A stretch of 64,000 nt of DNA from Pirellulales bacterium (GTDB lineage Bacteria; Planctomycetota; Planctomycetia; Pirellulales; PALSA-1355): positions 170,300 through 234,299 of the forward strand of contig JBFWOR010000005.1 in NCBI GenBank assembly GCA_050250435.1, read 5' to 3'. How positions within the stretch are numbered: the stretch's first letter is position 1; the number at the start of each line of letters is the position of its first letter. Below are positions 2,006 to 58,147 of the stretch, piece after piece. Below the pieces are notes generated by a model, which worked only from the letters and a program-made list of their open reading frames with translations, was not told the DNA's origin and made no database searches. The position numbers and the translations under genes were made by a program.

Positions 2006-3220
2006 CTACTGCCCCAGGATTTTGACAAATTCGAAATGGCCATTGTGCACGGTACTGCCGGTGACGGTGGACAATGTGCTGTCGCCGTTTTTGTCGAACG
2101 ACCAGGTGCCGAGCGCGCCCTGATCGAAGTCCTTGATCTCCTGGCACGCCTTGAGAATCGCCGCGCGATCCTTGACGCCGGCGCGGCGAATGGCCTCGAT
2201 GGCTGCCTTGGCCGCCTCGTAGCCGTAGATGGCGTAGCCTTCCGGCAGCCCGCCGAATTGCTGCTGATACTTGTCGACGAACTTCTTGCCGGGTCCGGTC
2301 AGCTTATCGGGCGGCATACCGCCGAACGTGATGAAGCAGCGGTCGTTGAGGTTCTCCGCACCGGCAGATTTGATGAACGCCTCTTCATAGCACGCGTCGG
2401 GCACCATGAGCTTGCTATCCAAGCCGGCGGCCACCAGGTCTTTGGCGATCTGCCCGCCCTTGGATTGTGTGGTGCCGCCGAAGTAGACCAGATCCGGCTT
2501 GAGGCCTTTGATCGTAGCCATCAGCGGCTTGAATTCCTGGGCCTTCACGTCGATGCTCTCGTGCCCGACCACCTCGATGCCCAAATCCTGGCAGGCCTCG
2601 ATGAACAGCGTGGCGATGCCTTTGCCGTAGACTTCGTTGTCGTCCAGCACGTACACGCGCTGCACGCCCATTTCCTTGGCCCACAGCGCGCCCAGCGGCG
2701 CCTGCTGATCATCGGTCGGCACGATGCGCAAATAATTGATATGGCCCGTGGGGCGATAGATGTCGGGCTCACCGGGATCGCCTTTGCCGGGCTTGGTCAG
2801 GCCGGGCCAGGTGTTGGCGGGGCTGATCATCAGCAACCCGGCCTTGTTCAAGATGGGCATCGAGATCTTGGCGGCACCCGAGTTGTAGGTGCCCAGGTAC
2901 ACCATCACGTCCGGATCGTGTACGGCCCGGTTGGCATTAGCCGTTTCGGCCTCGGCCGTCCACTGACCGGCACCCGCCGTGGCGTCGTCCCAGTCGGCGT
3001 ACTCGATCTCGAATGGCCCGGCTTTGTAGCCGGCTTCTTCCAGGGCGATCTTGATGCCGTTGACGATCGTGTCGGTCTGGGCCTTGGCGCTACCCGTGCG
3101 CGGGAGACTGGAAACGACTTTGACCCGATTCGGATCGCCGCCCGACGGAATTCCCCAGCCGACCACCGTCAGCACTGCCAGCATGGCAATCAGTAGCAAA
3201 GGGGCGACGTAACGTGCCAT
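2006..3220 (-). CDS. ABC transporter substrate-binding protein, Leu/Ile/Val-binding (type I periplasmic binding protein) family
   Basis: 404-aa ORF with an N-terminal hydrophobic anchor/signal. It has LivK/LivJ-like motifs (GTYNSGAAKISMPILNKAGLLMISPANTWPGLT) and sits directly upstream of livH on the same strand. Confidence 0.85.
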   Translation of the reverse strand: MARYVAPLLLIAMLAVLTVVGWGIPSGGDPNRVKVVSSLPRTGSAKAQTDTIVNGIKIALEEAGYKAGPFEIEYADWDDATAGAGQWTAEAETANANRAVHDPDVMVYLGTYNSGAAKISMPILNKAGLLMISPANTWPGLTKPGKGDPGEPDIYRPTGHINYLRIVPTDDQQAPLGALWAKEMGVQRVYVLDDNEVYGKGIATLFIEACQDLGIEVVGHESIDVKAQEFKPLMATIKGLKPDLVYFGGTTQSKGGQIAKDLVAAGLDSKLMVPDACYEEAFIKSAGAENLNDRCFITFGGMPPDKLTGPGKKFVDKYQQQFGGLPEGYAIYGYEAAKAAIEAIRRAGVKDRAAILKACQEIKDFDQGALGTWSFDKNGDSTLSTVTGSTVHNGHFEFVKILGQ

Positions 3221-3488
3221 GCGCGTTCACAGGGGCAATTCGGGGAACCTTGGGTACGAGCCGTGCGAATTGTAGCGCAAGCAAAAATGCACGTCAATTC
3301 GGCGCCACTGCCGCACAGCAAACCCGCTGCAACGCCGCAAACAGCGCGGACGCGTTCATCCGCGGCCGCGATCTTGACGCGCCGGCGGACCTTCGAGTAC
3401 CGTTCGCCGCCTCGCGCCCAAGGCCGGCGGATCGTCGGCCGTGCGCGATCGACCAAACACTTCATTACCAGCCGCCCCCAGGTGGATT

Positions 3489-4694
3489 ATGAGCGTTGCA
3501 CCCCTCGAACATCGTTGGGCCACTCCGCCGGTGCCGCCGGCCTTTGTCTCCACACAGCCGACGCCCGTTCCGTTGCTCGACGTGTCGCGTCAGTATCACG
3601 CGATTCGCGATGACGTGGCCAAGGCGTTGGCGCGGGTGTGCGACTCCGGCCGTTTTATCCTCGGGCCGGATTGTGAGGAGCTCGAACGCCGACTGGCCGA
3701 ATACTGCCAGGTGTCCCACGCCGTGGGATGCGCCTCGGGCAGTGACGCGCTGGTGTTGGCGCTCATGGCGCTTGGCGTCGGACCGGGCGACGAAGTGCTC
3801 ATGCCCAGCTACACGTTTTTCGCCACCGCCAGTGCGGCCTGGCGGTTGGGCGCCAAGCCGGTGTTCGTTGACATCGACCCGGTGACGTACAACATCGATC
3901 CCAACAAGGTCGAAGTGCTAATCTCGCCGGCCACCAAGGCGATCCTGCCGGTGCACTTGTACGGCCAGTGTGCCGACATGCGGGCGCTGGAAACGATTGC
4001 TCGCACGCACAAGGTGCCGCTGGTGGAAGATGCCTGCCAGGCCATAGGCGCGGAATTCGCCGGCCGTCGGGCGGGCAGCTGCAGCGCGATCGGCTGTTTC
4101 AGCTTCTATCCCACGAAGAATCTGGGCGGCTACGGCGACGGCGGATTGTTGACCACGCACGACGCCGCCCTGGCAGAGCAGCTGCGCCTGTTGCGTGGCC
4201 ACGGCATGCAGCCGCGTTACTATCACCAGGTGGTGGGCGTGAACAGCCGGCTCGATTCGCTGCAGGCGGCCGTGCTCAACGTCAAGCTTCCTCACCTCGA
4301 TCGTTGGACCACCGACCGGCAGACGAATGCTCAGCGCTACCACGAGCTATTTGCCGCGAACCGGCTGGAGCACTTGCTGGGCCTGCCGCACACGGCCCCG
4401 GGCCGCCGCCACGTGTGGAATCAATACATCATCCGCGTGCCGGACGGACGGCGCGACGCGTTGCGCGCGTATCTGGCGGAACGCAAAATCGGCACCGAGA
4501 TTTACTATCCCGTGCCGCTGCACTTGCAGGCCTGTTTTGCCGCGCTGGGCTACGAGCAGGGCAGCCTGCCGGAATCGGAGCGGGCGGCGCACGAAACGCT
4601 GGCGCTGCCAATCTTCCCCGAGCTGACCGCGGCCGAACAGCAAGTGGTGGTGCGCGAGATTGCCGCCTATTGGCACGGCCCACGTCTGGCCTAA
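3489..4694 (+). CDS. DegT/DnrJ/EryC1/StrS family PLP-dependent sugar aminotransferase
   Basis: The ORF 3441..4694 contains GPDCEELERRLAEYCQVSHAVGCASGSDALVLALMALGVGPGDEVLMPSYTFFATASA and FYPTKNLGGYGDGG (PLP-Lys region). The ATG at 3489 (MSVAPLEH) is preferred over the alternative start at 3441, but the start is uncertain. Confidence 0.85.
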   Translation: MSVAPLEHRWATPPVPPAFVSTQPTPVPLLDVSRQYHAIRDDVAKALARVCDSGRFILGPDCEELERRLAEYCQVSHAVGCASGSDALVLALMALGVGPGDEVLMPSYTFFATASAAWRLGAKPVFVDIDPVTYNIDPNKVEVLISPATKAILPVHLYGQCADMRALETIARTHKVPLVEDACQAIGAEFAGRRAGSCSAIGCFSFYPTKNLGGYGDGGLLTTHDAALAEQLRLLRGHGMQPRYYHQVVGVNSRLDSLQAAVLNVKLPHLDRWTTDRQTNAQRYHELFAANRLEHLLGLPHTAPGRRHVWNQYIIRVPDGRRDALRAYLAERKIGTEIYYPVPLHLQACFAALGYEQGSLPESERAAHETLALPIFPELTAAEQQVVVREIAAYWHGPRLA

Positions 4695-5749: not shown

Positions 5750-7087
5750 TTACGATTTGCCCCGCAGACGCTCGGCCAGCGTTGCCGGCACCGCCGCCAA
5801 CGCGACTTGCGTGCTTTCGCCCGTGGCCAGGTCCTTGATCTGGCAAGTGCCCGCCTGCCATTCGTCCGGGCCGATGATGACGGCCAGCGCAAAGCCGCGA
5901 CGGTCGGCGTATTTGAGCTGCTGGCCGATTTTCTTGGCCTCGGGATACAGCTCCACGCCGATCCTTGCGCGGCGAATCTCCGCCGCCAATCGCAAGTAGT
6001 CGTGCAGTCGCTCCGCGTCAAACAGCGGCATGAACACCGGCGCCGGCGTACTCACCTTTTGCACGAGGCCCAGCTCTTCGAGCGCCGCCAGCAACCGATC
6101 GAGTCCCAGCGACGCGCCGATGCCCGGCAACTCTTCCTTGGTGTACAGCCCGGCCAGATTGTCGTAGCGGCCGCCGGAGCACACGCTGCCAATGCCGGGC
6201 AGGCGATCCAGAAACGTTTCGAACACCGTGCCCGTGTAGTAGTCGAGCCCGCGGGCAATCGAAGGGGCGATGCGGATGCGCGCCGGTTCCACACCGGCGG
6301 CGGTCACCGCCGAGAGCAGATCCGTCAGTTTGCCCACTCCTTCTTCACCCTTCGCCGTGCCGCCCACGAGCTTCGCCAATTCGGCGAGCACATGCCGGTT
6401 GTCGCCGTCGATGTCGGCCAACGCCAACAGACCGTCGACTTGTTCGCGAGTGGCGCCGGCGACGGCGGTCATCTCGTCGGCCACTTTGTCGCGGCCCGCC
6501 TTGGCCAGCTTGTCGAGCGCCCGCAACACGAGCGCCGTCTGGTCAGACAACTCGTAGCGCTCCAGCAACCCGGCCAGCACCAACCGATTGTTGACATTGA
6601 TGGTGAAATCGCGAATGCCCAGCGCCTGGAACAAATCGTGAATCACGAGCGCCGACTCAATGTCGGCGGTCAGGGCCTTGGTGCCGATGGTGTCGAAATC
6701 GCACTGCATGAACTCGCGATAGCGGCCGCGCTGCGTGTTCTCGCCGCGCCACACCGTGGCAATGTGATAGCGCTTGAACGGCGTTCCCAGCTGGCCCACG
6801 TGCTCGGCCACAAACCGTGCCAAGGGCACCGTGAGGTCGAACCGCATGCCCACCCAGCGCCCGCCATGGTCCTGGAACTTGTAGAGCTGCTTGTCGGTCT
6901 CTTCGCTCCCCTTGCCGGTGAGGATTTCGAGGTACTCGAGTGCCGGCGTGTCGATGGGGCTGAAACCGTACGAGCGATAGACCCGCCGGGCCGTGTCGAT
7001 CAGCCACTCGCGCGGAATCATCGTCTCGGGAAGGTAGTCGCGAAAGCCCTTCAGCGTGCGGGGCTCGATACGTTTGACGTCGTTCAC
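5750..7087 (-). CDS. hisS: Histidine--tRNA ligase
   Basis: 445-aa ORF with PRTLKGFRDYLPETM, YKFQDHGGRWVGMRFDLTVPLARF and GGRYDNL class II motifs. It uses a GTG start. Confidence 0.95.
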   Translation of the reverse strand: MNDVKRIEPRTLKGFRDYLPETMIPREWLIDTARRVYRSYGFSPIDTPALEYLEILTGKGSEETDKQLYKFQDHGGRWVGMRFDLTVPLARFVAEHVGQLGTPFKRYHIATVWRGENTQRGRYREFMQCDFDTIGTKALTADIESALVIHDLFQALGIRDFTINVNNRLVLAGLLERYELSDQTALVLRALDKLAKAGRDKVADEMTAVAGATREQVDGLLALADIDGDNRHVLAELAKLVGGTAKGEEGVGKLTDLLSAVTAAGVEPARIRIAPSIARGLDYYTGTVFETFLDRLPGIGSVCSGGRYDNLAGLYTKEELPGIGASLGLDRLLAALEELGLVQKVSTPAPVFMPLFDAERLHDYLRLAAEIRRARIGVELYPEAKKIGQQLKYADRRGFALAVIIGPDEWQAGTCQIKDLATGESTQVALAAVPATLAERLRGKS

Positions 7088-7099
7088 GGTCGATCCATC

Positions 7100-7639
7100 T
7101 TAGGCGGTCAAAACCGGCAACAACGGGGGTTTGGCGCTGCGGATGCTCTGGCCCCGTTTTTTGGGCAACACAGCCTCTGCGTACTCGACCACTTGTTCCG
7201 ACGTTTCCAAATACTGCTCGTACAGCCACTCGTCCTCGTACTCGCAGTCCTTGGTGGAATACTCGCGGCAAATCATCGGCCGGGTGTGGTACACGCCGCA
7301 GCGATTGTCGCTCAGCAGGTGCTTGCAAGTCGTGTGCACCAGCAGATACCAGGTGTCGTCTTCCTTGAACAGGCTGGACGCGTCGTGCATGAGATACCAG
7401 CGCACGAATTCCCAATCGCGGGCGTCGGTCGGGGTTTCGACCGCCAGCGCAAAGTATTTGCAGCACTTGGCCGAGCAGTGATTGCACAACACGTCGCCCG
7501 GCAACAATTGTTCCCGGCGCAGCTTGGGCACGAGGGGAGGGCTGATCACGCGTGAGATTCCTGGCGTGGCAATAGGTTCGCGCGGTTCCCGCGACAGCGG
7601 CACCGCTCGCTGCCAGATTAACAAACACCCGCCCGGCAC
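7100..7639 (-). CDS. YkgJ-family cysteine-cluster protein (CxxCxxCC, UPF0153-like)
   Basis: The ORF contains CNHCSAKCCKYF ... CKHLLSDNRCGVYHTRPMICREY. The start is uncertain: GTG 7639 or GTG 7549. Confidence 0.7.
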   Translation of the reverse strand: MPGGCLLIWQRAVPLSREPREPIATPGISRVISPPLVPKLRREQLLPGDVLCNHCSAKCCKYFALAVETPTDARDWEFVRWYLMHDASSLFKEDDTWYLLVHTTCKHLLSDNRCGVYHTRPMICREYSTKDCEYEDEWLYEQYLETSEQVVEYAEAVLPKKRGQSIRSAKPPLLPVLTA

Positions 7640-18655: not shown

Positions 18656-21600
18656 TTAGCGGCGCTTGGTGTCTGAGGGGCGCCGCGTGATGTCTTGTGC
18701 CGGCGGCGCACAAAGGTAGGCGAACAGGTCGGCAATCTCTTCCAGCGTCAGCGTGTTCACCAGTCCCTCGGGCATGGCCGAGATCTTGGTCCGCGCCGAC
18801 TCTTCGATGTCGTCTTGCTTCAGCACGACTTTCTCGCCGCTGGCCTGCAGCACGGTCAGGGAGCCATCGGCGCCGGGCGCCACCATGCCGCTGTAGGTCT
18901 TGCCGTCCTTGGTCACGATGGTTTGCGTGGCGAACTGATCGGGAATAACCTGCGACGGAAACAAGATCGATTCCAGGATTTCTTTTTTCTGGAAACGCTT
19001 ACTGACGTTCGTCAAATCGGGACCAACCGTATCGCCGCGCTCGCCGTAGCGATGACACTTGATGCACTGGGCCTTCTCAAACAGTGCGGCGCCCCGCGCG
19101 GCGACTCCGCCCGTGGCCTGCGGCCCGGTAAGAAAGCTCAGCAGCTCGGAATAAGTCCAGTGATTCTGTTCGCTCTCGGCGGGCAACTTGGGCTCCGGCA
19201 AGTCGGGATACTTGGCCACAAACCACTGTTGCCAGGCGGCGATCGATTGTTGCCAGGGCAGATCGTCGCCACCCTGCTTTTCGCCGGTCCATTTTTCCAA
19301 TAACGCGACGGCGCGGCGGCTGCCGTTTTCGCGCAGCATCAAGCCCCGCAGGATGGTCTGGCGATACGCCTCGGCGTCGTCGGGCACGCGGTCCACTTGC
19401 GCCAACTTGCCCAACACTTCCTGCGCGGCGGCCCCTTCCACGATCGACAGTGACCGCACCAGGTAAGGCCAATTCTCGCCGTCGGGCGTTTGCGCGAGCC
19501 CCATGGCAATGGCCACGCGGCGATCGGGCTCTTCGTCGTAGAGTTCGCGCAAATAGGCCATGGCACCGGCATCTCCGCTGGCGCCCAGCACGGCGCAAAT
19601 GCCCACGCGCAGCTTCTTGGCCGCGTCGGTGTCGAGCTTCTTCACTTGCCGATCGAGCGCTTGAATCTGTTCCAAAGTTTCGGGCGACGGATGCTGCGGC
19701 AGCTTGGCCAACACACTCAACGCGGAGCTCGGCCATTTGACGCCGTCGGCCAGCACGACCTGGCATTCCTGTTCGTTGAACGTGGCAAAGAATTCGCGCG
19801 CCGCGTTTTCCACGTAGCCGGCAAAGCTATGGCCGCCTTCGACCGCTCGGGCCTCTTCATAGGCCTGTAACACCTGCAATTTGAGCGGCAAGGTCCAGCC
19901 GGCTTGTAGAAAGCGAGCATGCATCACCAGGTGCATTTTCTCGACGCTCGGCATTTCGCCGCGCAGCTGTTCCACCAGCCGTTCGGCGAACGTCGGATCT
20001 TGCAGGAAGACGAGCAATCGCACCAATTCGCGGTTCAATTGATGATCGCGCGAAGGGTACTCGCCGGCCAGCTGCTCGCGCAATTGCGGCACGTCGTCGC
20101 CCGTCAGCTTGCCTTGAATCAACGCCAACTGCATCACGCGCAAGAGCTGGATGAATTCGTCGTCCGTCAAATAGCCGCTCATCAGCGTGCGGCTGCGCTC
20201 CAGCACGTTCGTGGCCATTTTGCGATCGACGGGCGCGCTCAACAGCGCCGTTGCGCCGTTGACGAACGCTCTGGCCCGCTGCTCTTTCAGCACGGCATCG
20301 GCCCATTGCTCGCGGGGCAGTTGTTGCAGCGTGCGGCCGGCGGCCCAGGAAACATAGCGGTCGGGCGAGAACAACAAGGGCAACAATCGATCGGCATCGA
20401 CCGGCACCGCGCCCCGTACGATCGATTCGCACGCTGCGCGTTCCACCGCCAGGTCGGGATCAATTAACAAATCCGCCAGCCTGGCCTTCGTCGCGTCGTC
20501 GATGTGCAGACCCATCAGCCGCGCCGCCTTGGTGCGCAACAACGGCGATTTGTCGCGCGACATTTCGACCAGGAGTTCCGCGGAGGGGCTGGGCCCGTAG
20601 AGCTGCAGCAGCTCTAGAGCGCGCACGCGAACATGAGCAGGTGCCTTGGTATCCTTGGCCACCACAATGAGTTGCGGCCCCCACTTGTCGCCCAGCTGTT
20701 GTTTGACCAGCGCCACTTGCTGCCGTCCCCAGGCACTTTGGAGCTGCGGCTGGTTGAGGGCGGCATTGAGCCCTTGCCCGCGGTTCTTCATTTCTGGGGG
20801 GACTTTGCCATCCCACACGACGCGGTAGATGCCGCCTTCGGTATCGCGGCCGCCGGTGCAGAAATACAGCCAGCCGTCCGGGCCAACGGCGATGTCCGTC
20901 ACGTTCAGCGGCTGGCCTTCGACGAATACTTCGGCCGTGGCCCGGTACGTAGCGCCATGTTGCTTCGGGCGGACGCACAAAATGCGGCCGCGCGACCAGT
21001 CGCACACAAACAGCGTGTTGTGAAAACGGCGCGGATACATGAAGTGGTCGTACGACTCGATGCCGGCGGGCGAGCCGCGGCCCAGCTCCAACGTCGGCGG
21101 CAGGCTGTCGACGAAATATTTCGGCCATTTGGCCCAGCCGCTGCGCCAGCCGAACTCGGAGCCGGCGCTCACGTGTACCAGCCGCGTGGGCCGGTACCAC
21201 GACATGCCCATGTCCCACTCCATGTCGGAGTCGCAGGTGAACAGGTCGCCGGCCGCATTGAAGGCCAGGTCATACGGGTTCTGCAATCCGCCGGCAAACA
21301 GCTCCACGGCCGTGCCCGAGGTGTCCGTGCGGATGACCGTGCCGCCGGGCGCTTTGATGCCCACGGCATGGCCGCTGGCGTCTTCATAGCGCGGCGTGAT
21401 CAAATCGCCTTCGTAATAATCGTGGTACGGGCTGGCCTCGGCAAAGCTGTCGGCCACGTGCGAAAAGTTGCCAGCGATCATGTACAGCAGTCCGTCCGGC
21501 CCCAGGGCCAGTGCGTGCGGCCCGTGCTCGCGCATTTCGCCGGTGAACTTGAGCACCGTTTCGGTTTTATCGATGCGCCCGTCGTGATCTTCGTCGGCCA

Positions 21601-22477
21601 GGCGATACATGCCGGCCCCTTCGGGCCCTTCGCCAATCACGTACACCTTGCCGCTGATGGGCAGCAGGCCCTGACAGTTCTTCACCGTATCGCAATACGT
21701 CGATACGTTGTCGACCAGCCCGTCCTTGTCGTCATCTCGAATCACGACCAGCGGGCCGTTCTCGCGCGCCGCGATGATCTGGCCGAACTCGTCGAACGCC
21801 ATGCAAATCAGCGAGCCGGTATCCTTGGGATCGATGACCCACTCCACGTGGAACTCGGGAGTCACGCGAAAGCGGCCTTCGGCGCCGGCCACGGAAACTT
21901 CGTTGCCCCAGGGCAGCGTCGCGCCGAGCGCGCCAAAGCTGCGGGCCGACAGCCACTGGGTGTCGGCAAAGCGCGGCTTCTGCCACTGCGGAAAGTCTTT
22001 GAGCGCCGTCTTCCAACTCGCGTCGGTCGAGTGCTCGACGTGCGTATTGCCTTGCTCTTTGACCGCCACTCGGGCCACCAGTGCCGCGCTGCCGGTTGTG
22101 GAGTTCACCGCCTTGACGGCGATCGTGTTCTGGCCGACGACCAGCTGCTTGGTGATGTCGTAGACGTCGAGCGCTTTCCAATTCTTGCCGCTGCCGACGT
22201 GGTGGCCGTTCACATACAACTCATAGCTGTCGTCGCAGGCAATCTGAATGACGCCGTGTTCCGGCGCGCCCAGTGGAAACGACTTGCGAAAATAGCAAGT
22301 GCCTTCCGGCGCCAGCTCTTTTTCGTACGCGGGCGACCAGATCCATTCCGCTTCGCGTCCTAGCGCGCGCTTGGAAGTCAGCGCGGCGCAGGCGGCGATG
22401 CTCGCCGTCAACGCGATCGCACGCGCGCCGCGCCACCACCACGCTGTTGAACGGCACGCTGTCGGAAGGTTTCGCAT
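18656..22477 (-). CDS. PVC-type heme-binding CxxCH protein with 'membrane-bound dehydrogenase' domain and HEAT-like repeats
   Basis: The ORF is 18656..22612, with the start likely ATG 22477 (MRNLPTACRSTAWWWRGARAIALTASIAACAALTS). It has a C-terminal cytochrome-c motif CIKCHRYGERGDTVGPDL and ends ...LTLEEIADLFAYL. The architecture is typical of Pirellula/Verrucomicrobium giant proteins. Confidence 0.8.
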   Translation of the reverse strand: MRNLPTACRSTAWWWRGARAIALTASIAACAALTSKRALGREAEWIWSPAYEKELAPEGTCYFRKSFPLGAPEHGVIQIACDDSYELYVNGHHVGSGKNWKALDVYDITKQLVVGQNTIAVKAVNSTTGSAALVARVAVKEQGNTHVEHSTDASWKTALKDFPQWQKPRFADTQWLSARSFGALGATLPWGNEVSVAGAEGRFRVTPEFHVEWVIDPKDTGSLICMAFDEFGQIIAARENGPLVVIRDDDKDGLVDNVSTYCDTVKNCQGLLPISGKVYVIGEGPEGAGMYRLADEDHDGRIDKTETVLKFTGEMREHGPHALALGPDGLLYMIAGNFSHVADSFAEASPYHDYYEGDLITPRYEDASGHAVGIKAPGGTVIRTDTSGTAVELFAGGLQNPYDLAFNAAGDLFTCDSDMEWDMGMSWYRPTRLVHVSAGSEFGWRSGWAKWPKYFVDSLPPTLELGRGSPAGIESYDHFMYPRRFHNTLFVCDWSRGRILCVRPKQHGATYRATAEVFVEGQPLNVTDIAVGPDGWLYFCTGGRDTEGGIYRVVWDGKVPPEMKNRGQGLNAALNQPQLQSAWGRQQVALVKQQLGDKWGPQLIVVAKDTKAPAHVRVRALELLQLYGPSPSAELLVEMSRDKSPLLRTKAARLMGLHIDDATKARLADLLIDPDLAVERAACESIVRGAVPVDADRLLPLLFSPDRYVSWAAGRTLQQLPREQWADAVLKEQRARAFVNGATALLSAPVDRKMATNVLERSRTLMSGYLTDDEFIQLLRVMQLALIQGKLTGDDVPQLREQLAGEYPSRDHQLNRELVRLLVFLQDPTFAERLVEQLRGEMPSVEKMHLVMHARFLQAGWTLPLKLQVLQAYEEARAVEGGHSFAGYVENAAREFFATFNEQECQVVLADGVKWPSSALSVLAKLPQHPSPETLEQIQALDRQVKKLDTDAAKKLRVGICAVLGASGDAGAMAYLRELYDEEPDRRVAIAMGLAQTPDGENWPYLVRSLSIVEGAAAQEVLGKLAQVDRVPDDAEAYRQTILRGLMLRENGSRRAVALLEKWTGEKQGGDDLPWQQSIAAWQQWFVAKYPDLPEPKLPAESEQNHWTYSELLSFLTGPQATGGVAARGAALFEKAQCIKCHRYGERGDTVGPDLTNVSKRFQKKEILESILFPSQVIPDQFATQTIVTKDGKTYSGMVAPGADGSLTVLQASGEKVVLKQDDIEESARTKISAMPEGLVNTLTLEEIADLFAYLCAPPAQDITRRPSDTKRR

Positions 22478-22714
22478 AACCTCGCCTCGCAGGGAACGAA
22501 GTGGACGGACAAATGCGGCCACAAAAACGGGCCCGCAGCGCCGCCGGAACGTCAAATCAGGGGCCATAGAGTAGCGAGACCCCACAAAGGGCTCAACAGA
22601 GCTTCGGGGCATTTACGAAGCTCGTGCGCGACAGCACACGGCTGCTGGCATGCGACAACTGGCCCGGCAAGAACGCCGCAGGAAAGCCCGGGGGCGCGGA
22701 CGCGGCCGTGCCGA

Positions 22715-23569
22715 CTACCGCAACCGGCGGCCCGGTGGCAGCGAGCGTCGCAGCGAAGGCGCCGGCACGCCGGGCTCGAGCAGCTCGCCAATCATGCCCT
22801 GGGCGTCGCTGGCATTGGCCGCCAGCCGCACCATCCACAGCGAGCGAAAGACCCCGGTCGAATCGAACAACTCGCCCGGAAAACAGCCCAGGATGCTGGC
22901 GGTAATGCGGGCGTTGGCGTCGGGATTGGCGGCCACCACGGACATGCCGCTGTGGAAGGCATTGCGCATCGAGACCAGCGCCAGGCGCCACGCCTGATCG
23001 ACCGCGGGCCCGCCACGGCGCCGGGCGAGGTCGGAGGCAAAGTCTTCGGCCCGCTCCGGCTCGACAGCAAACTCGCGCACGTCGTGCAGGTGCAACAGCC
23101 CGCCGATCAGCATGTCGGTCCAACGTTCCGCACGGCGTCGCAGGCGATTGACGCTGGCAGCCTGTTTGACTCCCAATCCGTCGCCGTACACCAAGAGCGC
23201 CATGGCGCGATGCCGGGCCTCGTAGTGCGAGCTGAGCACGCTACGGGCAATCGGTTCCGCCAGGTTGGAATCGGCATTTCGGTCGCAGGCCACGAGCACC
23301 GCGGACCAAACGCGGGTCAGAATCTCACTGGCAAAGATTTCGTCGAGCGCGGCCCGGACGTCGATCCAGCGATCAAAGTTTTCTTGCGGCGGCGACTCGG
23401 CCAGTGCGGCGTAGGTTTTGAGGGCCCGCATCCAGCTCTCGAAGCGAAACTTCGAGGTTGACCAGTACTGTTCGAGTTGCCCGGCGGCCGGCTGATGCAC
23501 GCCGCCGATCAACAGCGACCCGTTGTGCGCAACTAGACCGGCGACGTCGACTAACTCGCGGGCGTGCAT
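22715..23569 (-). CDS. Hypothetical protein (possibly last gene of the ECF sigma/anti-sigma operon)
   Basis: The ORF is 22715..23758. ATG 23569 (MHARELVDVAGLV) was chosen as the start, but it is uncertain. No motif was recognised. Confidence 0.5.
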   Translation of the reverse strand: MHARELVDVAGLVAHNGSLLIGGVHQPAAGQLEQYWSTSKFRFESWMRALKTYAALAESPPQENFDRWIDVRAALDEIFASEILTRVWSAVLVACDRNADSNLAEPIARSVLSSHYEARHRAMALLVYGDGLGVKQAASVNRLRRRAERWTDMLIGGLLHLHDVREFAVEPERAEDFASDLARRRGGPAVDQAWRLALVSMRNAFHSGMSVVAANPDANARITASILGCFPGELFDSTGVFRSLWMVRLAANASDAQGMIGELLEPGVPAPSLRRSLPPGRRLR

Positions 23570-23992
23570 GAAGGAAGGCCGGGCGGCGAATAAAGGCCGC
23601 AGGAAGGGACGGGAGACACCACACACGCGAAAACGCGCCGCAGGTGGGAGCCGACGGCCAGGGCCCGAGGGGACGGGGGCCCTGGCCGCGGCAAACTGAG
23701 GTGGGCGTCGCGTGAACCATTGCATTGGCAAACCGGGTGCCAACCAAGTCCGGCGCATCGCCTGGCGGGTCGTAAGCGCCTTGGGCGCCGACCATTGCGT
23801 GCTGAATTCACGGTCCCACCGTCACCGGTCGGCCGAGGCCCGTGGTGACTTTCGGCATCATCGCCGCGCAAAAGTCATCATCACCAGAGGCCGCGCAAGA
23901 ATTTGACCGGCGCGCGAGCGGAAGGACACAGCAGGCCGCGAGAAGGGCAACCACCGGAAGGCCAGCACCACCAGCTACGGTGTTTCGACCAG

Positions 23993-24979
23993 CTACGGCG
24001 TTTCGACCGCGCGGACTTCGAGCAGCTGCTTGCCGCTAGGACGCGGGCTGGCATGGCTGGGGGCGATTACGGCGTCGTGCAGGTGCAAGCCGGGACCCAC
24101 AACACCCTCGTCGTTGGTGTAGATGTGGTCGCGGCAGCCGCGCGCACGGCAAGTGGTGAGATACTCGACGTGCTGATCTTCGAAGAGCACGTTCTGGCCA
24201 CAGCCGCCGTGGTTCTGCGAGTGATACGGGGCCTCAGCGCTGGGCTGGTCGGCGGCCACCGCGTAGCGCACGCGGTGCAGGTTGCGCGGCGAATAGTACT
24301 TGCCGTTCGAGTAGAAGCCGAGGTTAAAACCCAGGCTGCCGCCCATCCGCTTGCGGACTTCTGCCAGTTGGGCGCCGCGCACCGCGTAGATTTCTTGTTC
24401 CGTGGGAATGCGGAACGCCTCGGGATTATCGGCCAGGTCCGACGCCGGGCAGATCAGCAGGTCCGAGCTGTCGAGCAGCCCCATGTCGCGAAGTTTCACC
24501 GCCACGATCCCCGCGGCCGCGCAGGGCCCCTCGGCCGGAACGTTCGGGTAGAAACCGCCATGGGCTTCGCTGTAAGTGTTCAGAGCCATGCCGAAGCGCC
24601 GCAGGTTGTCCTGGCATTGGGTCACCCGGGCGGCGAAGCGGCTTTGGCTCACGGCCGGAAAAAAAAGCAAGGCCGCCGCGACGAAGATTCCCGCCGCGAC
24701 CACCATATCGGCCATCGACCATTGCCGCTGCGGCGCCGCGTAAGGCGTCGCCGGCGCCGCCAGCACGCGCGTCCGCTCGAATACGATCTGACAGGTGCGA
24801 TCGGCGAGCCCCAGCGGAGGCTCGTAGTGATTCCGATCCGCCGCCAGGGGCAGCAAACTATAGGACAATAAATCGAGCTCGCGTTGCAGTTGCGGATCGC
24901 GCTCGAGGTGGGCTTGCACTTGCTCGCGTTCGCCGGGCTCCAGCGCGTCAAGCAGGTATCCGATCAGTTGATCTCTCAT
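23993..24979 (-). CDS. Putative anti-sigma factor fused to a DUF1559 (H-X9-DG, pseudopilin-like) domain
   Basis: The start lies 9 nt after the ECF sigma stop. The N-terminus MRDQLIGYLLDALEPGEREQVQAHLERDPQLQRELDLL is anti-sigma-like but lacks Cys. The TM segment and following sequence (VVAAGIFVAAALLFFPAVSQSRFAARVTQCQDNLRRFGMALNTYSEAHGGFYP) and the C-terminal HSQNHGGCGQNVLFEDQHVEYL match the DUF1559 pattern. Confidence 0.7.
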   Translation of the reverse strand: MRDQLIGYLLDALEPGEREQVQAHLERDPQLQRELDLLSYSLLPLAADRNHYEPPLGLADRTCQIVFERTRVLAAPATPYAAPQRQWSMADMVVAAGIFVAAALLFFPAVSQSRFAARVTQCQDNLRRFGMALNTYSEAHGGFYPNVPAEGPCAAAGIVAVKLRDMGLLDSSDLLICPASDLADNPEAFRIPTEQEIYAVRGAQLAEVRKRMGGSLGFNLGFYSNGKYYSPRNLHRVRYAVAADQPSAEAPYHSQNHGGCGQNVLFEDQHVEYLTTCRARGCRDHIYTNDEGVVGPGLHLHDAVIAPSHASPRPSGKQLLEVRAVETP

Positions 24980-24988
24980 GGCGGGCGA

Positions 24989-25639
24989 TTACGGTTGGGA
25001 GGTTTCTTCGTTCTGCATCCAGGCCTCGTTCAGTTTCAAGATCGCCGAGTGGAGCCGGCTTTTCACCGTACCCACCGGGATGCTCAAAACGTCTGCCGCC
25101 TCTCTGTACTTCAGGCCTTGGTAATACACCAGATGGACCGCCTCGCGCAGCGAATCGGGCAATTGCTCAACCGCCTCGCGAATCCACTCGGTTTGTTGGC
25201 TGGCTTGGGCGCGATCCTCGGGACTTGGCTCCTTGCTTTCCAGCAGGCTCATCAACGAGCCCAACTCATCTTGTTCGTGATGCCGGGTATTTCGATCCAG
25301 GCTGACGCTGCGGTGCCGCTTGTTGCGGCGTTGCGCGTCGATCGCCTGGTTCGTCGCAATGGTGTATAGCCACGGCCGGAATTTCCGGCCCTCGTCAAAC
25401 TGGTCGCACTTCAGATGCACCTGCAGAAAGGTCGCCTGAAACGTATCTTCCGCCAGACTGGCGTCTCCCAGGTAGCGTCGCAAATAGCTGAACAACTCCC
25501 GCTCGTAGCGGTTGACCAACTCGGCAAACGCCAGCCGATCAGCGTGATCGCGGTAGGCCGACAGCAACGCTTCGTCGGACATTCCTGCCCGATCGGACGC
25601 TGCGGCCGTGGCCGGCGAGTGTCTGGTGGCCTTGTTCAT
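24989..25639 (-). CDS. ECF-type RNA polymerase sigma-70 factor
   Basis: 216-aa ORF with region 2 (FQATFLQVHLKCDQFDEGRKFRPWLYTIATNQAIDAQRR) and region 4 (LREAVHLVYYQGLKYREAADVLSIPVGTVKSRLHSAILKL). Confidence 0.92.
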   Translation of the reverse strand: MNKATRHSPATAAASDRAGMSDEALLSAYRDHADRLAFAELVNRYERELFSYLRRYLGDASLAEDTFQATFLQVHLKCDQFDEGRKFRPWLYTIATNQAIDAQRRNKRHRSVSLDRNTRHHEQDELGSLMSLLESKEPSPEDRAQASQQTEWIREAVEQLPDSLREAVHLVYYQGLKYREAADVLSIPVGTVKSRLHSAILKLNEAWMQNEETSQP

Positions 25640-26084
25640 TTCTCAATACGGGCTGGTCGGCACCGGAGTTCGCCATCCGGGAGCCGAAAAAGCCGGCAAT
25701 TTTTCACCGCGGCCGGCCGCGCGCGGTTCTGACGCATTGTATCAGACCGTGCCGCGCCGCACGCCGTCACCCGGCGGGAGCCGGCCGGCTGTCACCGGCC
25801 GCCTCAACCTACTCTACACTAGGACCTTAAGTCCACTCTGCACAGATCCGGGGAATTCGCTATAATCGCGCCGCCTATGACCATCGGGAGGAGGTCGCAG
25901 GCCGGTTGAAGCTCGCGGGCGCGGCGGCCACGCCGTCGCCGCTGCGGCCTCAACCCCTTCTCTCCCGCGGGACGCGTGAGGAGGCACCCATGCATAACCG
26001 CAAGCAAGATCGAACCATGCGCGCCCGGAAGCACGATGCCGCCCGCGGCCGCGCTGGTCACAGCGTCACAGGAGGGAGAGACGT

Positions 26085-27362
26085 ATGCACATCCACAGCA
26101 GGGCCGCCCGGATCGTAATGCTGGCCGTTGGGCTCGCTGGCCTGGCGGCAAATGGCCCCAACGCACAGCCCGCTTCGGCGCTCGACTTCACCAGCTACGG
26201 ACAGGCGCGCGATTTTCTGGCCGCGCACACCGAAGTCGTGGAAATGACCGGCGAAGACGGCGAGCGCGTCGCCATCTGCCCCGAGCTGCAAGGCCGGGTC
26301 ATGACTTCGACCACCGGCGACCTCAAAGGTCGCAGTCTGGGGTGGATTAACAAATCTTTTCTCCAGCGCGGCACGCTCGACAAGCAATTCAACAACTACG
26401 GCGGTGAAGACCGGCTCTGGCTCGGGCCCGAGGGCGGACCCTATAGCCTGTGGTTCGCGCCGGGCGCAGAGCAAAAGCTGACCCATTGGATCACCCCCGC
26501 GGCGCTCAACGACGGCGCTTTCAAAATCGTCTCCCGCAAGGAGGACCCGTTTTACAAGTTCTCGCGGCAGATGCGCCTGACGAACACGGCCCGCACGCAA
26601 TTCGACCTGGAAGTGACGCGCGAGATCCGTCTGCAAAAGGCGCATCACTTTGGCCAGTTGTTCGGCGCGGAAGCCCAAAGCGCGTTGGAAGGCGGCGGGC
26701 TCAAGGTCGTCGGTTTTCAGACCATCAACACGATCGTCAATCGCGGTCAGCCCATGACCCGCGAAAAAGGCCTGGTCTCCATCTGGAGCCTGGGCCAGTT
26801 TCCGGCCGGTGAGCGCACCTTCGTGATCGTGCCCTATCGTGCCGGCGACGAAGCCGATCTGGGGCCGATCGTCAATTCCGAGTACTTCGGTTCGGTGCCG
26901 GCCGACCGTTTGCGGGTCACCCCGCAAGCCATCTGGTTTCTGGCGGACGGCAAGTACCGCTCGAAAATCGGCGTGTCGCAGCGGCGCGTGAAGCCAATCG
27001 TCGGCTCGCTCGACATGACGGCCGGGGTGCTGACACTCGTACACTTCACGATGCCGGCGGAACCCGCGGAGTTTTCCTACGTCAACAACGAGTGGGGCCG
27101 CCAGGCCGAGCCCTATCGGGGCGACGTGGCCAATAGCTACAACGACGGGCCGCCGGAACCCGGCCGGCCGGCGATGGGCGGCTTTTACGAGATCGAGTCG
27201 CTTTCGCCCGCGGCGCAACTGCCCACCGGCAAATCCCTTTCGCACACGCAGACCACGTTTCACATCGAGGGCGACGCCAGCCGCCTGGCACGCGTGGCCA
27301 AAGCGGCCCTGGGCGTGGACGTGAAAGTAAACGAAGTGGCCAGCGACCCCAAGAATCGATGA
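26085..27362 (+). CDS. Exported hypothetical protein
   Basis: 425-aa ORF with a signal-like N-terminus (MHIHSRAARIVMLAVGLAGLAANGPNAQP) and the conserved-looking block NNYGGEDRLWLGPEGGPYSLWF. I could not name the family with confidence. Confidence 0.6.
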   Translation: MHIHSRAARIVMLAVGLAGLAANGPNAQPASALDFTSYGQARDFLAAHTEVVEMTGEDGERVAICPELQGRVMTSTTGDLKGRSLGWINKSFLQRGTLDKQFNNYGGEDRLWLGPEGGPYSLWFAPGAEQKLTHWITPAALNDGAFKIVSRKEDPFYKFSRQMRLTNTARTQFDLEVTREIRLQKAHHFGQLFGAEAQSALEGGGLKVVGFQTINTIVNRGQPMTREKGLVSIWSLGQFPAGERTFVIVPYRAGDEADLGPIVNSEYFGSVPADRLRVTPQAIWFLADGKYRSKIGVSQRRVKPIVGSLDMTAGVLTLVHFTMPAEPAEFSYVNNEWGRQAEPYRGDVANSYNDGPPEPGRPAMGGFYEIESLSPAAQLPTGKSLSHTQTTFHIEGDASRLARVAKAALGVDVKVNEVASDPKNR

Positions 27363-56707: not shown

Positions 56708-56890
56708 GATTGGAACGACTGCGATGCGGCCCCCTCCGGAGAGTTATCGGGATACAAGCGGGATTTCCCCAGGGAATGACCGCCCCAAAGCCGGCTTGTG
56801 GCGGCTCGGACCGGTCGCTACCCTATCGCCCCGCTCGTAGCCGCTGGCCCAGCGCTTTGAACCGTCGCCAGCCGAAATGCGTATAATGCA

Positions 56891-57328
56891 ATGATGAACA
56901 TTGCGGCAACTTTAGCGACCTGGCTCTGTATGGCACTGGTGGCCATGCCGATGACTCCTTGCGCGCTGTTGCCGCGCGTCTGCGTGCTGGCGTTTCCCGC
57001 AACAACGTCAGACGCCAACGCTGAGACCTCGGGTGATCAGACCCCCGTGGCTCATTCCTGTTGCCGCGAAGCGGCGCCGCGCTGTGATCTGGCCGAAGGC
57101 GATGCCCAAACGCATCCTCAGCCGGACAAACCCTGCCCGCGCGGCTGCTGCCGGCTGGTGCCCATTGCACCAACGGTGGACAAGGTGGTCGTGGCGCATT
57201 CGCCCCTGGTGACGGACTATGTGCCGTGCCTGGCGGATGCCGTCGGCGAATGGAATCTCGCACCGGCGCAGGAGCCGCAGCTAGCGGCCGAGACGTTGCA
57301 CGCTCTCTCCTGCCTGTGGCGTTGCTGA
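56891..57328 (+). CDS. Small exported/anchored Cys-containing protein, hypothetical
   Basis: 145-aa ORF with a hydrophobic N-terminus MMNIAATLATWLCMALVAMPM. It has 12 Cys including HSCC and PRGCC, and the C-terminus is LHALSCLWRC. It lies directly upstream of the CC-doublet protein on the same strand. Confidence 0.45.
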   Translation: MMNIAATLATWLCMALVAMPMTPCALLPRVCVLAFPATTSDANAETSGDQTPVAHSCCREAAPRCDLAEGDAQTHPQPDKPCPRGCCRLVPIAPTVDKVVVAHSPLVTDYVPCLADAVGEWNLAPAQEPQLAAETLHALSCLWRC

Positions 57329-57436
57329 TCGCTACGCGCTCTTGATCTGTGCCATGCTGCGCGCAGATTTCCGGGCGCCGAGCAGACGAACGTCGTGATT
57401 CAAAGTTTTGAGTTTCATCAGGCAAGGAGACTGTAC

Positions 57437-58147
57437 ATGTATTCCATGTTTTTCAAGTCGGCCGCCGCGCTCATGCTGGGCGTGGGGGCGTTGGTCGCTG
57501 CCAGCGGCGCTGCCGCCGACAATGCGACCAAGGACGATGCGACCAAGGACACCGCCACCAAGGCCAAGAGCTGTTGTGAGGCCAAACTCGCCTGCTGCGA
57601 CGCCAAGCGCGCCTGCTGCACCGACGAGACCAAGGCGGCCTGCTGCGCCCAGGGCATGACCTGTTGCAAGAACAACCAGGCATGCTGCGACAAGGCGTCG
57701 CAATGCTGCATCGACGGCAAGGATTGCTGCCAGGAAGGCAAAGATTGCTGCGGCAAGAAGGGCGAAGTGAAGACGGCCGCCTTGAGCGACAAGCCGGCTT
57801 GCTGCAAAGCGGCGGCTGCAGTGCTCAACGTAACGACCGCCGACACGGGCGCAGCGGCAGCCAAAAGCTGCTGTGAAGCCAAGCTCGCTTGCTGCGACGC
57901 GAAGCGCGCCTGTTGCACGGACGAGCCCAAGGCGGCCTGCTGCGCCCAGGGCATGACCTGTTGCAAGAACAATCAGGCATGCTGCGACAAGGCGCCGCAA
58001 TGCTGCATCGACGGCAAGGATTGCTGCCAGGAAGGCAAAGCCTGCTGCGACAAGAAAGGGGAAACCAAGACGGCCGAGGCCGCCAAGAACCCCTGCTGTG
58101 CCAAAGGCGCAGTCCGCGTAGCAGCTGAGCCGAAGGTCGTGCGCTAA
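57437..58147 (+). CDS. Secreted cysteine-doublet (CC) repeat protein, function unknown
   Basis: ATG 57437 lies 6 nt after AAGGAGA (57424-57430), and the signal peptide is MYSMFFKSAAALMLGVGALVAASGAAA. The mature part has 20 CC doublets and no single Cys, mostly with CC-x5-CC spacing. A strong terminator follows the gene. Confidence 0.7.
   Translation: MYSMFFKSAAALMLGVGALVAASGAAADNATKDDATKDTATKAKSCCEAKLACCDAKRACCTDETKAACCAQGMTCCKNNQACCDKASQCCIDGKDCCQEGKDCCGKKGEVKTAALSDKPACCKAAAAVLNVTTADTGAAAAKSCCEAKLACCDAKRACCTDEPKAACCAQGMTCCKNNQACCDKAPQCCIDGKDCCQEGKACCDKKGETKTAEAAKNPCCAKGAVRVAAEPKVVR
57566..58076 (+). repeat. In-frame tandem duplication inside the CC-repeat gene (offset 297 bp = 99 codons)
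   Basis: Copy 1 (57566-57779) and copy 2 (57863-58076) align without gaps. By eye there are roughly 20 mismatches in about 214 nt, including two identical stretches of more than 40 nt. Confidence 0.85.

Follow-up and report, generated by a model that had tools for sequence, protein, structure and literature searches.

A stretch of 64,000 nucleotides from a Pirellulales bacterium (contig JBFWOR010000005.1, positions 170,300 to 234,299 of the forward strand; called the window below, with position 1 at its first letter) encodes on its reverse strand an extracytoplasmic function (ECF) sigma factor and, directly after it, a 328-residue protein that appears to combine an anti-sigma domain with a membrane helix and outer domain related to the pilin-like DUF1559 proteins. 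Judged from sequence comparisons and structure prediction, the two genes probably constitute an autoregulated ECF sigma/anti-sigma signalling pair, in which the anti-sigma factor carries a membrane helix and an outer domain of pilin descent.

The gene pair and the putative anti-sigma domain

The first gene of the pair (24989..25639, (-) strand) encodes a 216-residue protein that is an ECF sigma factor of the sigma-70 family (group 4), with matches in both Pfam and NCBIfam. Sigma70_r2 (PF04542) and Sigma70_r4_2 (PF08281) are recognised with E-values of 3.2e-19 and 5e-14, respectively, and the ECF model TIGR02937 scores 113.7 bits (cutoff 42.9). Neither region 3 nor region 1.1 was matched in the Pfam and NCBIfam scans, and the nearest NCBIfam equivalogs, PRK12513 and SigW among them, all fall under their cutoffs. 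The open reading frame (ORF) ends in a TAA stop codon, and nine nucleotides (tcgcccgcc) separate it from the ATG, at 24979, of the second gene (23993..24979, (-) strand), whose product is the putative anti-sigma factor, joined to a pilin-like module derived from DUF1559. This 328-residue protein is identical to the NCBI entry 'hypothetical protein AB7O59_03145' from a Pirellulales metagenome-assembled genome (MAG). The coordinates and the peptides quoted for the pair in the initial annotation are exact and lie where it placed them.

A first search with the 328-residue protein returned 283 full-length relatives of ∼320–330 residues, and 337 unique full-length family sequences were collected. 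A search of 1.84 billion cluster representatives with the family profile yielded 1068 matches when the threshold was E<1e-30 and 94,883 when it was E<1e-3, the weaker tail of these matches being probably the DUF1559 superfamily. With each species represented by a single genome, relatives were found in 446 genomes, and all 80 fetched loci come from Planctomycetota (Pirellulales, Pirellulaceae, Thermoguttaceae and Anammoximicrobium). In the genomes that were fetched the fusion gene mostly occurs once, only one MAG having given two loci, and its products are annotated in public databases as 'hypothetical' or 'DUF1559 domain-containing'. For 76 non-redundant loci the available sequence reaches far enough upstream, and in every one of them the gene directly upstream, on the same strand, encodes a homologue of the sigma factor, at gaps of −2 to 111 nt. 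This constant adjacency and the matches to sigma factor models support the proposal that these genes pair an ECF sigma factor with an anti-sigma factor.

The putative cytoplasmic anti-sigma domain comprises residues 1–75 (24755..24979, (-) strand) and resembles class I domains; it has four principal helices and lacks a zinc site. The 328-residue protein matches the NCBIfam anti-sigma model NF052375 over residues 5–124 (E 1.2e-15, 58 bits, equivalog cutoff 100) and PRK13920 at 2.6e-9; both models are also matched by 25 of 25 sampled relatives. In Pfam, zf-HC2 (18.4 bits, cutoff 22.2) and RskA_N (12.6 bits, cutoff 27) remain sub-threshold. The H-x3-C-x2-C zinc motif of the zinc-binding anti-sigma (ZAS) subfamily was not found in the protein, and the sole cysteine of the domain is Cys63, part of a conserved RTC motif. 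With no cysteine in residues 1–62 and anti-sigma models matched throughout the sampled relatives, the earlier description of an N-terminus that looks like a Cys-less anti-sigma domain holds.

An AlphaFold2 model of the 328-residue protein, built on 76 sequences, has a mean predicted local distance difference test score (pLDDT) of 90.4 and places the helices of this domain at residues 2–9, 15–27, 29–41 and 58–74, followed by a low-confidence linker. Its top fold matches in the PDB are RslA (3hug), RsiW (5wuq), RskA (4nqw) and ChrR (2q1z), with target template modelling scores (TM-scores) of 0.24–0.65 and E>1 in every case; the best, to RslA, reaches target TM-scores of 0.61–0.65 with a probability of up to 0.85, at E>1. 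Since the profile and fold matches are joined by an invariant adjacency to the sigma factor gene, we consider the assignment of this domain as anti-sigma to be well supported but not proven.

The pilin-type helix and the predicted periplasmic domain

The membrane helix, residues 87–110 (WSMADMVVAAGIFVAAALLFFPAV; 24650..24721, (-) strand), has the character of a vestigial class III signal and α1-N segment. The Pfam model for DUF1559/SBP_bac_10 (PF07596) is matched only marginally by the window protein, with 23.7 bits against a gathering score of 23.3, and the match is confined to residues 114–143, equivalent to profile positions 4–33 of 268; canonical DUF1559 proteins span positions 1–267. Among the sampled relatives, however, PF07596 is matched by 24 of 25 at E<0.01, the best at 9.4e-10, so that models for both DUF1559 and the anti-sigma domain are matched in this sample.

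Direct comparison of the family profile with a profile of 49 canonical DUF1559 proteins, each containing both PF07963 (N_methyl) and PF07596, gave an hhalign match of 76 columns (Prob 97.8%, E 7e-13) that sets family residues 82–157 on canonical positions 15–90. Taken separately, the membrane helix (family 84–110) aligns without gaps on canonical 17–43 (GFTLVELLVV...LLPAV) with P 1.3e-4, and the amphipathic helix that follows, α1-C (family 111–160), aligns on canonical 44–95 with P 6e-15. In this register Trp87 corresponds to Phe+1 of the pilin, Asp91 to Glu+5, Pro108 to Pro+22 and Cys122 to the conserved cysteine of the 'QC' motif (+36), and the spacings between +1, +5, +22 and the first conserved cysteine (4, 17 and 14 residues) are the same in the family and in canonical DUF1559 proteins. 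Position +5 is acidic in 336 of the 337 family sequences and position +22 is proline in 334. At +1, 283 sequences have Trp and 21 have Phe. In the AlphaFold2 models, residues 89–139 (6–56 in a separate model of the periplasmic fragment) form a single unbroken helix of 51 residues, and thus show the helix of ∼50 residues with a hydrophobic N-terminal half that characterises pilin-type α1. These comparisons support the derivation of the anti-sigma membrane anchor from a prepilin-type DUF1559 helix, and the recruitment of such a helix suggested in the initial annotation is strengthened in particular by the gapless alignment, the identical spacing and the match in α1-C.

The exact register of the aromatic +1, acidic +5 and Pro+22 residues, together with the basic residues that precede the helix, would also suit a true prepilin with a long leader, in which cleavage by prepilin peptidase before Trp87, on the cytoplasmic side, frees the anti-sigma domain with or without the sigma factor, leaves a mature DUF1559 pilin to be assembled and so acts as the switch. 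The signal in the 328-residue protein is, however, internal, beginning at residue 86 rather than at the N-terminus, and position −1 is Gly in just 51 of the 337 family sequences; Arg is commonest there, and the window protein has Gln. Prepilin peptidases depend on a Gly at that position. Moreover, no family member matches the prepilin cleavage/methylation models TIGR02532 or PF07963, unlike the canonical DUF1559 proteins, and we know of no precedent for a folded prepilin leader of 86 residues. Because Gly−1 is missing in 85% of the members, we rejected cleavage by prepilin peptidase as the switch, and judge a mechanism of this kind to be highly improbable.

The predicted periplasmic part, residues 111–310 (24050..24649, (-) strand), consists of α1-C, to residue 139, and a globular domain that resembles a trimmed form of that in DUF1559 proteins. 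An α/β domain follows helix 89–139 in the AlphaFold2 model, and the separate periplasmic fragment model has a pLDDT of 88.9. The cysteines are almost perfectly conserved, Cys122 in all 337 family sequences and Cys177, in a CPAS motif, in 336. Near the C-terminus is a degenerate form of the H-X9-DG motif (HGGCGQNVLFEDQHV; 24167..24211, (-) strand), in which His257 is found in 337 of 337 sequences, Asp268 in 312 and Gly at position 269 in 209, and beyond it lies a family-specific C-terminal segment with Asp284, Asn289, Gly297 and Asp302. The end of the protein had been described as H-X9-DG; it is instead H-X10-DQ in the window protein and H-X10-DG in the family consensus. TIGR04294, the model for H-X9-DG, has no match in the window protein at E≤1 and a weak one in only 9 of the 25 relatives, the strongest reaching E 0.0024; canonical proteins score 34–42 bits (cutoff 19).

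The globular domain is ∼115 residues shorter than in canonical DUF1559 proteins, the Cys-to-Cys spacing being 55 rather than 106 residues and the Cys-to-His spacing 80 rather than 145. When the C-terminal half is compared alone (family 158–310 against canonical 91–346), hhalign returns P 0.014 and Prob 3%, in an alignment that sets NHGGCGQNVLFEDxHV on the canonical SLHPGGxNVxLADGSV. A low-stringency alignment with three canonical DUF1559 proteins gives 212 collinear columns, from the transmembrane helix through CPAS/CPSN to H-X-DG. Foldseek searches of the PDB with the full model and with the periplasmic fragment found nothing under E 0.8, and for the fragment nothing under E 1; a PDB sequence search with the family profile gave no match at E≤10. 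The periplasmic domain appears, from the order of its hallmark motifs, to be a trimmed descendant of DUF1559. The earlier view of a complete DUF1559 module is thus an overstatement: the hallmark motifs are present in order and the N-terminal homology is clear, but the domain is ∼115 residues short and its globular part is not significantly similar on its own.

It could be argued that the resemblance to DUF1559 is spurious, arising from a hydrophobic helix and a short motif, and that the gene encodes a plain single-pass anti-sigma factor whose outer domain is unrelated; this would accord with a Pfam match of 23.7 bits that spans only ∼30 of 268 profile positions, with the Prob of 3% for the C-terminal half and with the lack of a pilin fold match in the PDB. 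We nevertheless conclude that the likeness is not due to chance, because 24 of 25 relatives match PF07596 (best E 9.4e-10) and the profile–profile E-value is 7e-13 over 76 columns, which include the non-hydrophobic helix with P 6e-15. The family profile, furthermore, draws 94,883 representatives at E<1e-3, and CPxS and H-X-DG fall in the same linear order as in canonical proteins. The chance of a spurious resemblance is, in our estimation, very small.

Promoters, a candidate target operon and neighbouring genes

An ECF-type promoter, GAACTCCGGTGCCGACCAGCCCGTA (25647..25671, (-) strand), precedes the sigma factor gene, with GAAC as the −35 element, a 17-nt spacer and CGTA as the −10 element. 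In 74 of 78 loci the pattern GAAC-N16-18-CGT[ACT] occupies a fixed position upstream of the sigma factor start, and one more locus has it far upstream. A dyad search upstream of the sigma factor genes points to the same motif, GAAC[T/C]-N16/17-CGTA, its top dyads occurring in 24 sequences compared with at most 6 in shuffled ones. Of 121 same-strand matches in 1.2 Mb of loci, 74 are at the sigma-start site, and no second conserved site is found within 10 kb on either side; the background is ∼1 match per 30 kb per strand, and 2.3 are expected per window by chance. The family motif resembles the SigW-type consensus, which in Bacillus subtilis is TGAAAC-N16-CGTA. As the CGTA element is only 5–10 nt from the sigma factor ATG across the loci (7 nt in the window), the sigma mRNA is probably leaderless or nearly so. 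The conservation of this promoter at the start of the sigma factor gene, a pattern typical of ECF autoregulation, suggests that the pair is autoregulated. A possible internal promoter before the anti-sigma ATG (GAAC-N16-CGTA, 24990–25013) was rejected, being present only in the window and in locus L008, with 2.3 matches expected per window.

Only one other good match to the ECF promoter motif is found in the window, a promoter-like GAAC-N17-CGTA site at 56859–56883 on the (+) strand that ends 7 nt before an ATG at 56891 and so shares the near-leaderless geometry of the sigma factor gene. The first gene behind it (56891–57328, (+) strand) encodes a 145-residue signal-peptide protein with the motifs HSCC, PCPRGCCRL and LSCLWRC, and the second (57395–58147, (+) strand) a signal-peptide protein of 250 residues composed almost wholly of CC-dyad repeats (CCEAKLACCDAKRACC...). 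Pfam recognises neither protein; both may have a role connected with metals or redox. Homologues in two loci from other samples, L087 and L088 (44% and 48% identical), have GAAC-N17-CGTA 10 nt before the ATG, and an ECF-type promoter therefore stands ahead of the Cys-rich operon in 3 of 3 homologous loci. A lone match could be due to chance, but because the motif recurs in both homologous loci it is plausible that this operon for Cys-rich secreted proteins belongs to the regulon of the sigma factor.

The character of this operon, the one candidate member of the regulon, bears on the nature of the signal. A chemical cue in the periplasm or one from the envelope, such as a metal, a thiol or redox change or a ligand, could be bound by the globular domain, with the helix acting only as an anchor and as a substrate for proteolysis. 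The genes of an ECF regulon often relieve the stress to which the system responds, and Cys- and CC-rich signal-peptide proteins suggest metal or redox handling; the globular domain, in addition, is under strong purifying selection, with invariant His257, Asp268, His270, Asp284, Asn289, Asp302, Cys122 and Cys177. On the other hand, His257, Asp268, Cys122 and Cys177 are also hallmarks of the canonical DUF1559 paralogues and so are more likely to be structural than sensory, no metal-binding family was detected in the profile scans, and the link between the sigma factor and the Cys-rich operon is one of promoter similarity at three loci. Sensing by the globular domain would also leave the conserved, buried acidic residue at +5 (336 of 337) unexplained. 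We regard it as possible, without thinking it likely.

The gene downstream of the pair (22715..23569, (-) strand) encodes a conserved hypothetical protein of ∼285 residues for which no relative is found in Pfam, NCBIfam or the PDB. It is 36–66% identical to the products of genes in the same position in loci L001, L003 and L004, and its start at 23569 is fixed by the conserved sequence MHxRELVxVA. In L004 the homologue (6345–7204) appears as two ORFs, 6345–6731 and 6611–7204, which points to a frameshift or to faulty assembly of that MAG. The gene accompanies the sigma pair in just 30 of 72 loci, and the window spacer between it and the anti-sigma gene measures 423 nt, those of other loci mostly 370–440 nt. 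Within the window spacer is an exact match to a sigma-54-type −24/−12 box (TGGCACCCGGTTTGC; 23728..23742, (-) strand), and most of 24 homologous spacers contain TGGCAY-N5-TTTGC (with no more than one mismatch to the GG/GC core), 115–217 nt ahead of the downstream gene start. Between this box and the gene lies a conserved 13-bp GC-rich hairpin with the loop YGGTCCCCTC (23654..23689, (-) strand), for which RNAalifold, applied to 15 loci, gives 13 base pairs; compensatory double changes are seen at 9 of these. A T-run follows the hairpin in some loci and is absent from the window, and an Rfam scan of 22500–26200 gave no match. Possible roles for the hairpin are those of an attenuator or other leader element and of a site for protein binding. 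The initial annotation had suggested that the downstream gene may share the operon of the sigma pair; this is not supported, in view of the sigma-54-type box and covarying hairpin in the ∼420-nt spacer and of the patchy occurrence of the gene, which for the former reason looks like an RpoN-dependent transcription unit of its own.

Neighbourhood clustering of the family loci gave only three conserved partners, the sigma factor gene, a divergent upstream gene and the downstream gene, and no pilus or secretion genes; a motif search of the window found no canonical DUF1559 genes. In 55 loci the divergent gene encodes a protein of ∼530 residues with no Pfam match (2499–4112, (-) strand, in L001; 2233–3807, (-) strand, in L003), and in the 17 loci of the window's own clade its position is taken by a gene for a DUF6786 protein (26085–27362 in the window), followed by a methyltransferase gene. 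Further downstream in the window (18656–22612, (-) strand) is a gene for a 1318-residue protein in which DUF7133 and HEAT domains are combined with a cytochrome c (CxxCH) domain at the C-terminus. Two genes, for 767 and >514 residues, are called in the homologous region of L004, reflecting either a fusion or a difference in gene calling or frame.

Proposed mechanism and relation to known systems

At rest, the anti-sigma domain would hold the sigma factor at the inner membrane, until a signal that reaches the pilin-derived module causes the anti-sigma factor to be inactivated or removed. The most likely route would be regulated intramembrane proteolysis, to which the Pro and Asp residues of the transmembrane helix seem suited. 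The freed sigma factor would then transcribe its own operon and an outside regulon, probably including the Cys-rich operon at 56.9 kb. In evolutionary terms, the short cytoplasmic leader of a prepilin would in effect have been swapped for an anti-sigma domain, an exchange that needs no change of topology because a prepilin already has its N-terminus inside and its C-terminus outside.

For the input, our preferred guess, which we offer tentatively and rate about as probable as a periplasmic cue, is a pilin-type contact within the membrane. As the buried acidic residue at +5 and Pro+22 are near-invariant, the helix may still act in a pilin-like way; Asp+5 and Pro+22 would allow the anti-sigma factor to dock on mature DUF1559 subunits or on their assembly platform, and the activity of the sigma factor would then report the state of the DUF1559 pilin pool or machinery. 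A more specific proposal, and one we hold to be rather unlikely, is that the anti-sigma factor is a pilin mimic whose cytoplasmic extension of 86 residues blocks its extraction into a fibre, so that the sigma factor reports the size of the pool or the activity of a DUF1559 filament.

Several observations weigh against this picture of a sigma/anti-sigma pair with a sensor of pilin descent. The anti-sigma profile scores of the 328-residue protein, significant as they are, lie below the curated cutoffs, and the anti-sigma fold matches all have E>1. The globular domain on its own shows no significant similarity to canonical DUF1559 (P 0.014), and the periplasmic fragment matches no solved pilin, the best being FimA (3sok) with a target TM-score of 0.33 for the helix only. 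Neither canonical DUF1559 genes nor genes for pilus machinery show a consistent linkage to the pair; only three DUF1559 genes occur in the 1.2 Mb of flanking sequence, none of them linked to it. The invariant transmembrane Asp and Pro could serve recognition by a site-2 protease rather than pilin contacts, and the promoter of the Cys-rich operon could belong to another ECF sigma factor of the same specificity.

In its genetic layout the pair conforms to known systems. RsiW/SigW, RseA/RpoE, RslA/SigL and RskA/SigK have the same order, an ECF sigma factor gene and then an anti-sigma gene, and the single-pass class I anti-sigma factors share the plan of an N-terminal helical domain, one transmembrane helix and an extracytoplasmic C-terminal domain, likewise with an autoregulatory promoter of the GAAC...CGT type. 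RsiW and RslA have a zinc motif, however, which the Pirellulales protein lacks, and, unlike in the class I anti-sigma factors, its transmembrane helix and outer domain appear to come from a prepilin-type DUF1559 protein. The sigma/anti-sigma module is standard in function, and its sensor half is new. In the literature searched, no paper joins DUF1559 or a pseudopilin with an anti-sigma factor, although the ECF Hub group descriptions may mention such an arrangement.

With the canonical DUF1559 proteins, defined by PF07963, PF07596 and TIGR04294, the fusion shares the helix register (Phe/Trp at +1, Glu/Asp at +5, Pro at +22 and Cys at +36), the CPxS cysteine and the C-terminal His...Asp-Gly motif, all in the same order. 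The canonical helix follows a short leader, whereas in the fusion it is internal, after a cytoplasmic domain of 86 residues. The fusion has, moreover, mostly lost Gly−1, has H-X10-D(G/Q) in place of the canonical motif, and differs in its shorter head and its extra C-terminal segment. It is also mostly single-copy and linked to a sigma factor gene, in contrast to the swarm of multi-copy paralogues that the canonical proteins form.

Reading of a pilin through intramembrane contacts with its N-terminal helix is seen in the PilS-PilA system of Pseudomonas aeruginosa (PMC6058289) and for PilA of Caulobacter (PMC7196804). The likeness to these systems is one of working principle only. They belong to histidine-kinase pathways in which the pilin sensed is a separate protein, whereas here the regulator is an ECF anti-sigma factor and is itself a putative pilin derivative, carrying the pilin helix with its acidic residue retained.

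If the anti-sigma assignment is correct, hundreds of proteins now annotated as 'hypothetical' or 'DUF1559 domain-containing' could become putative anti-sigma factors, and the catalogue of ECF anti-sigma factors would gain a new type of sensor with a simple evolutionary origin, through replacement of a prepilin leader. DUF1559/H-X9-DG proteins are among the most expanded families of Planctomycetota, with at least 41 genes per genome reported in one study (PMC8567305), and a DUF1559-derived module that controls transcription from a recognisable promoter may provide a read-out for this unexplained expansion. Should the anti-sigma factor indeed act as a pilin mimic, it would represent the first ECF pathway gated by a type IV filament machine, and would offer a genetic handle on the function of hundreds of DUF1559 paralogues.

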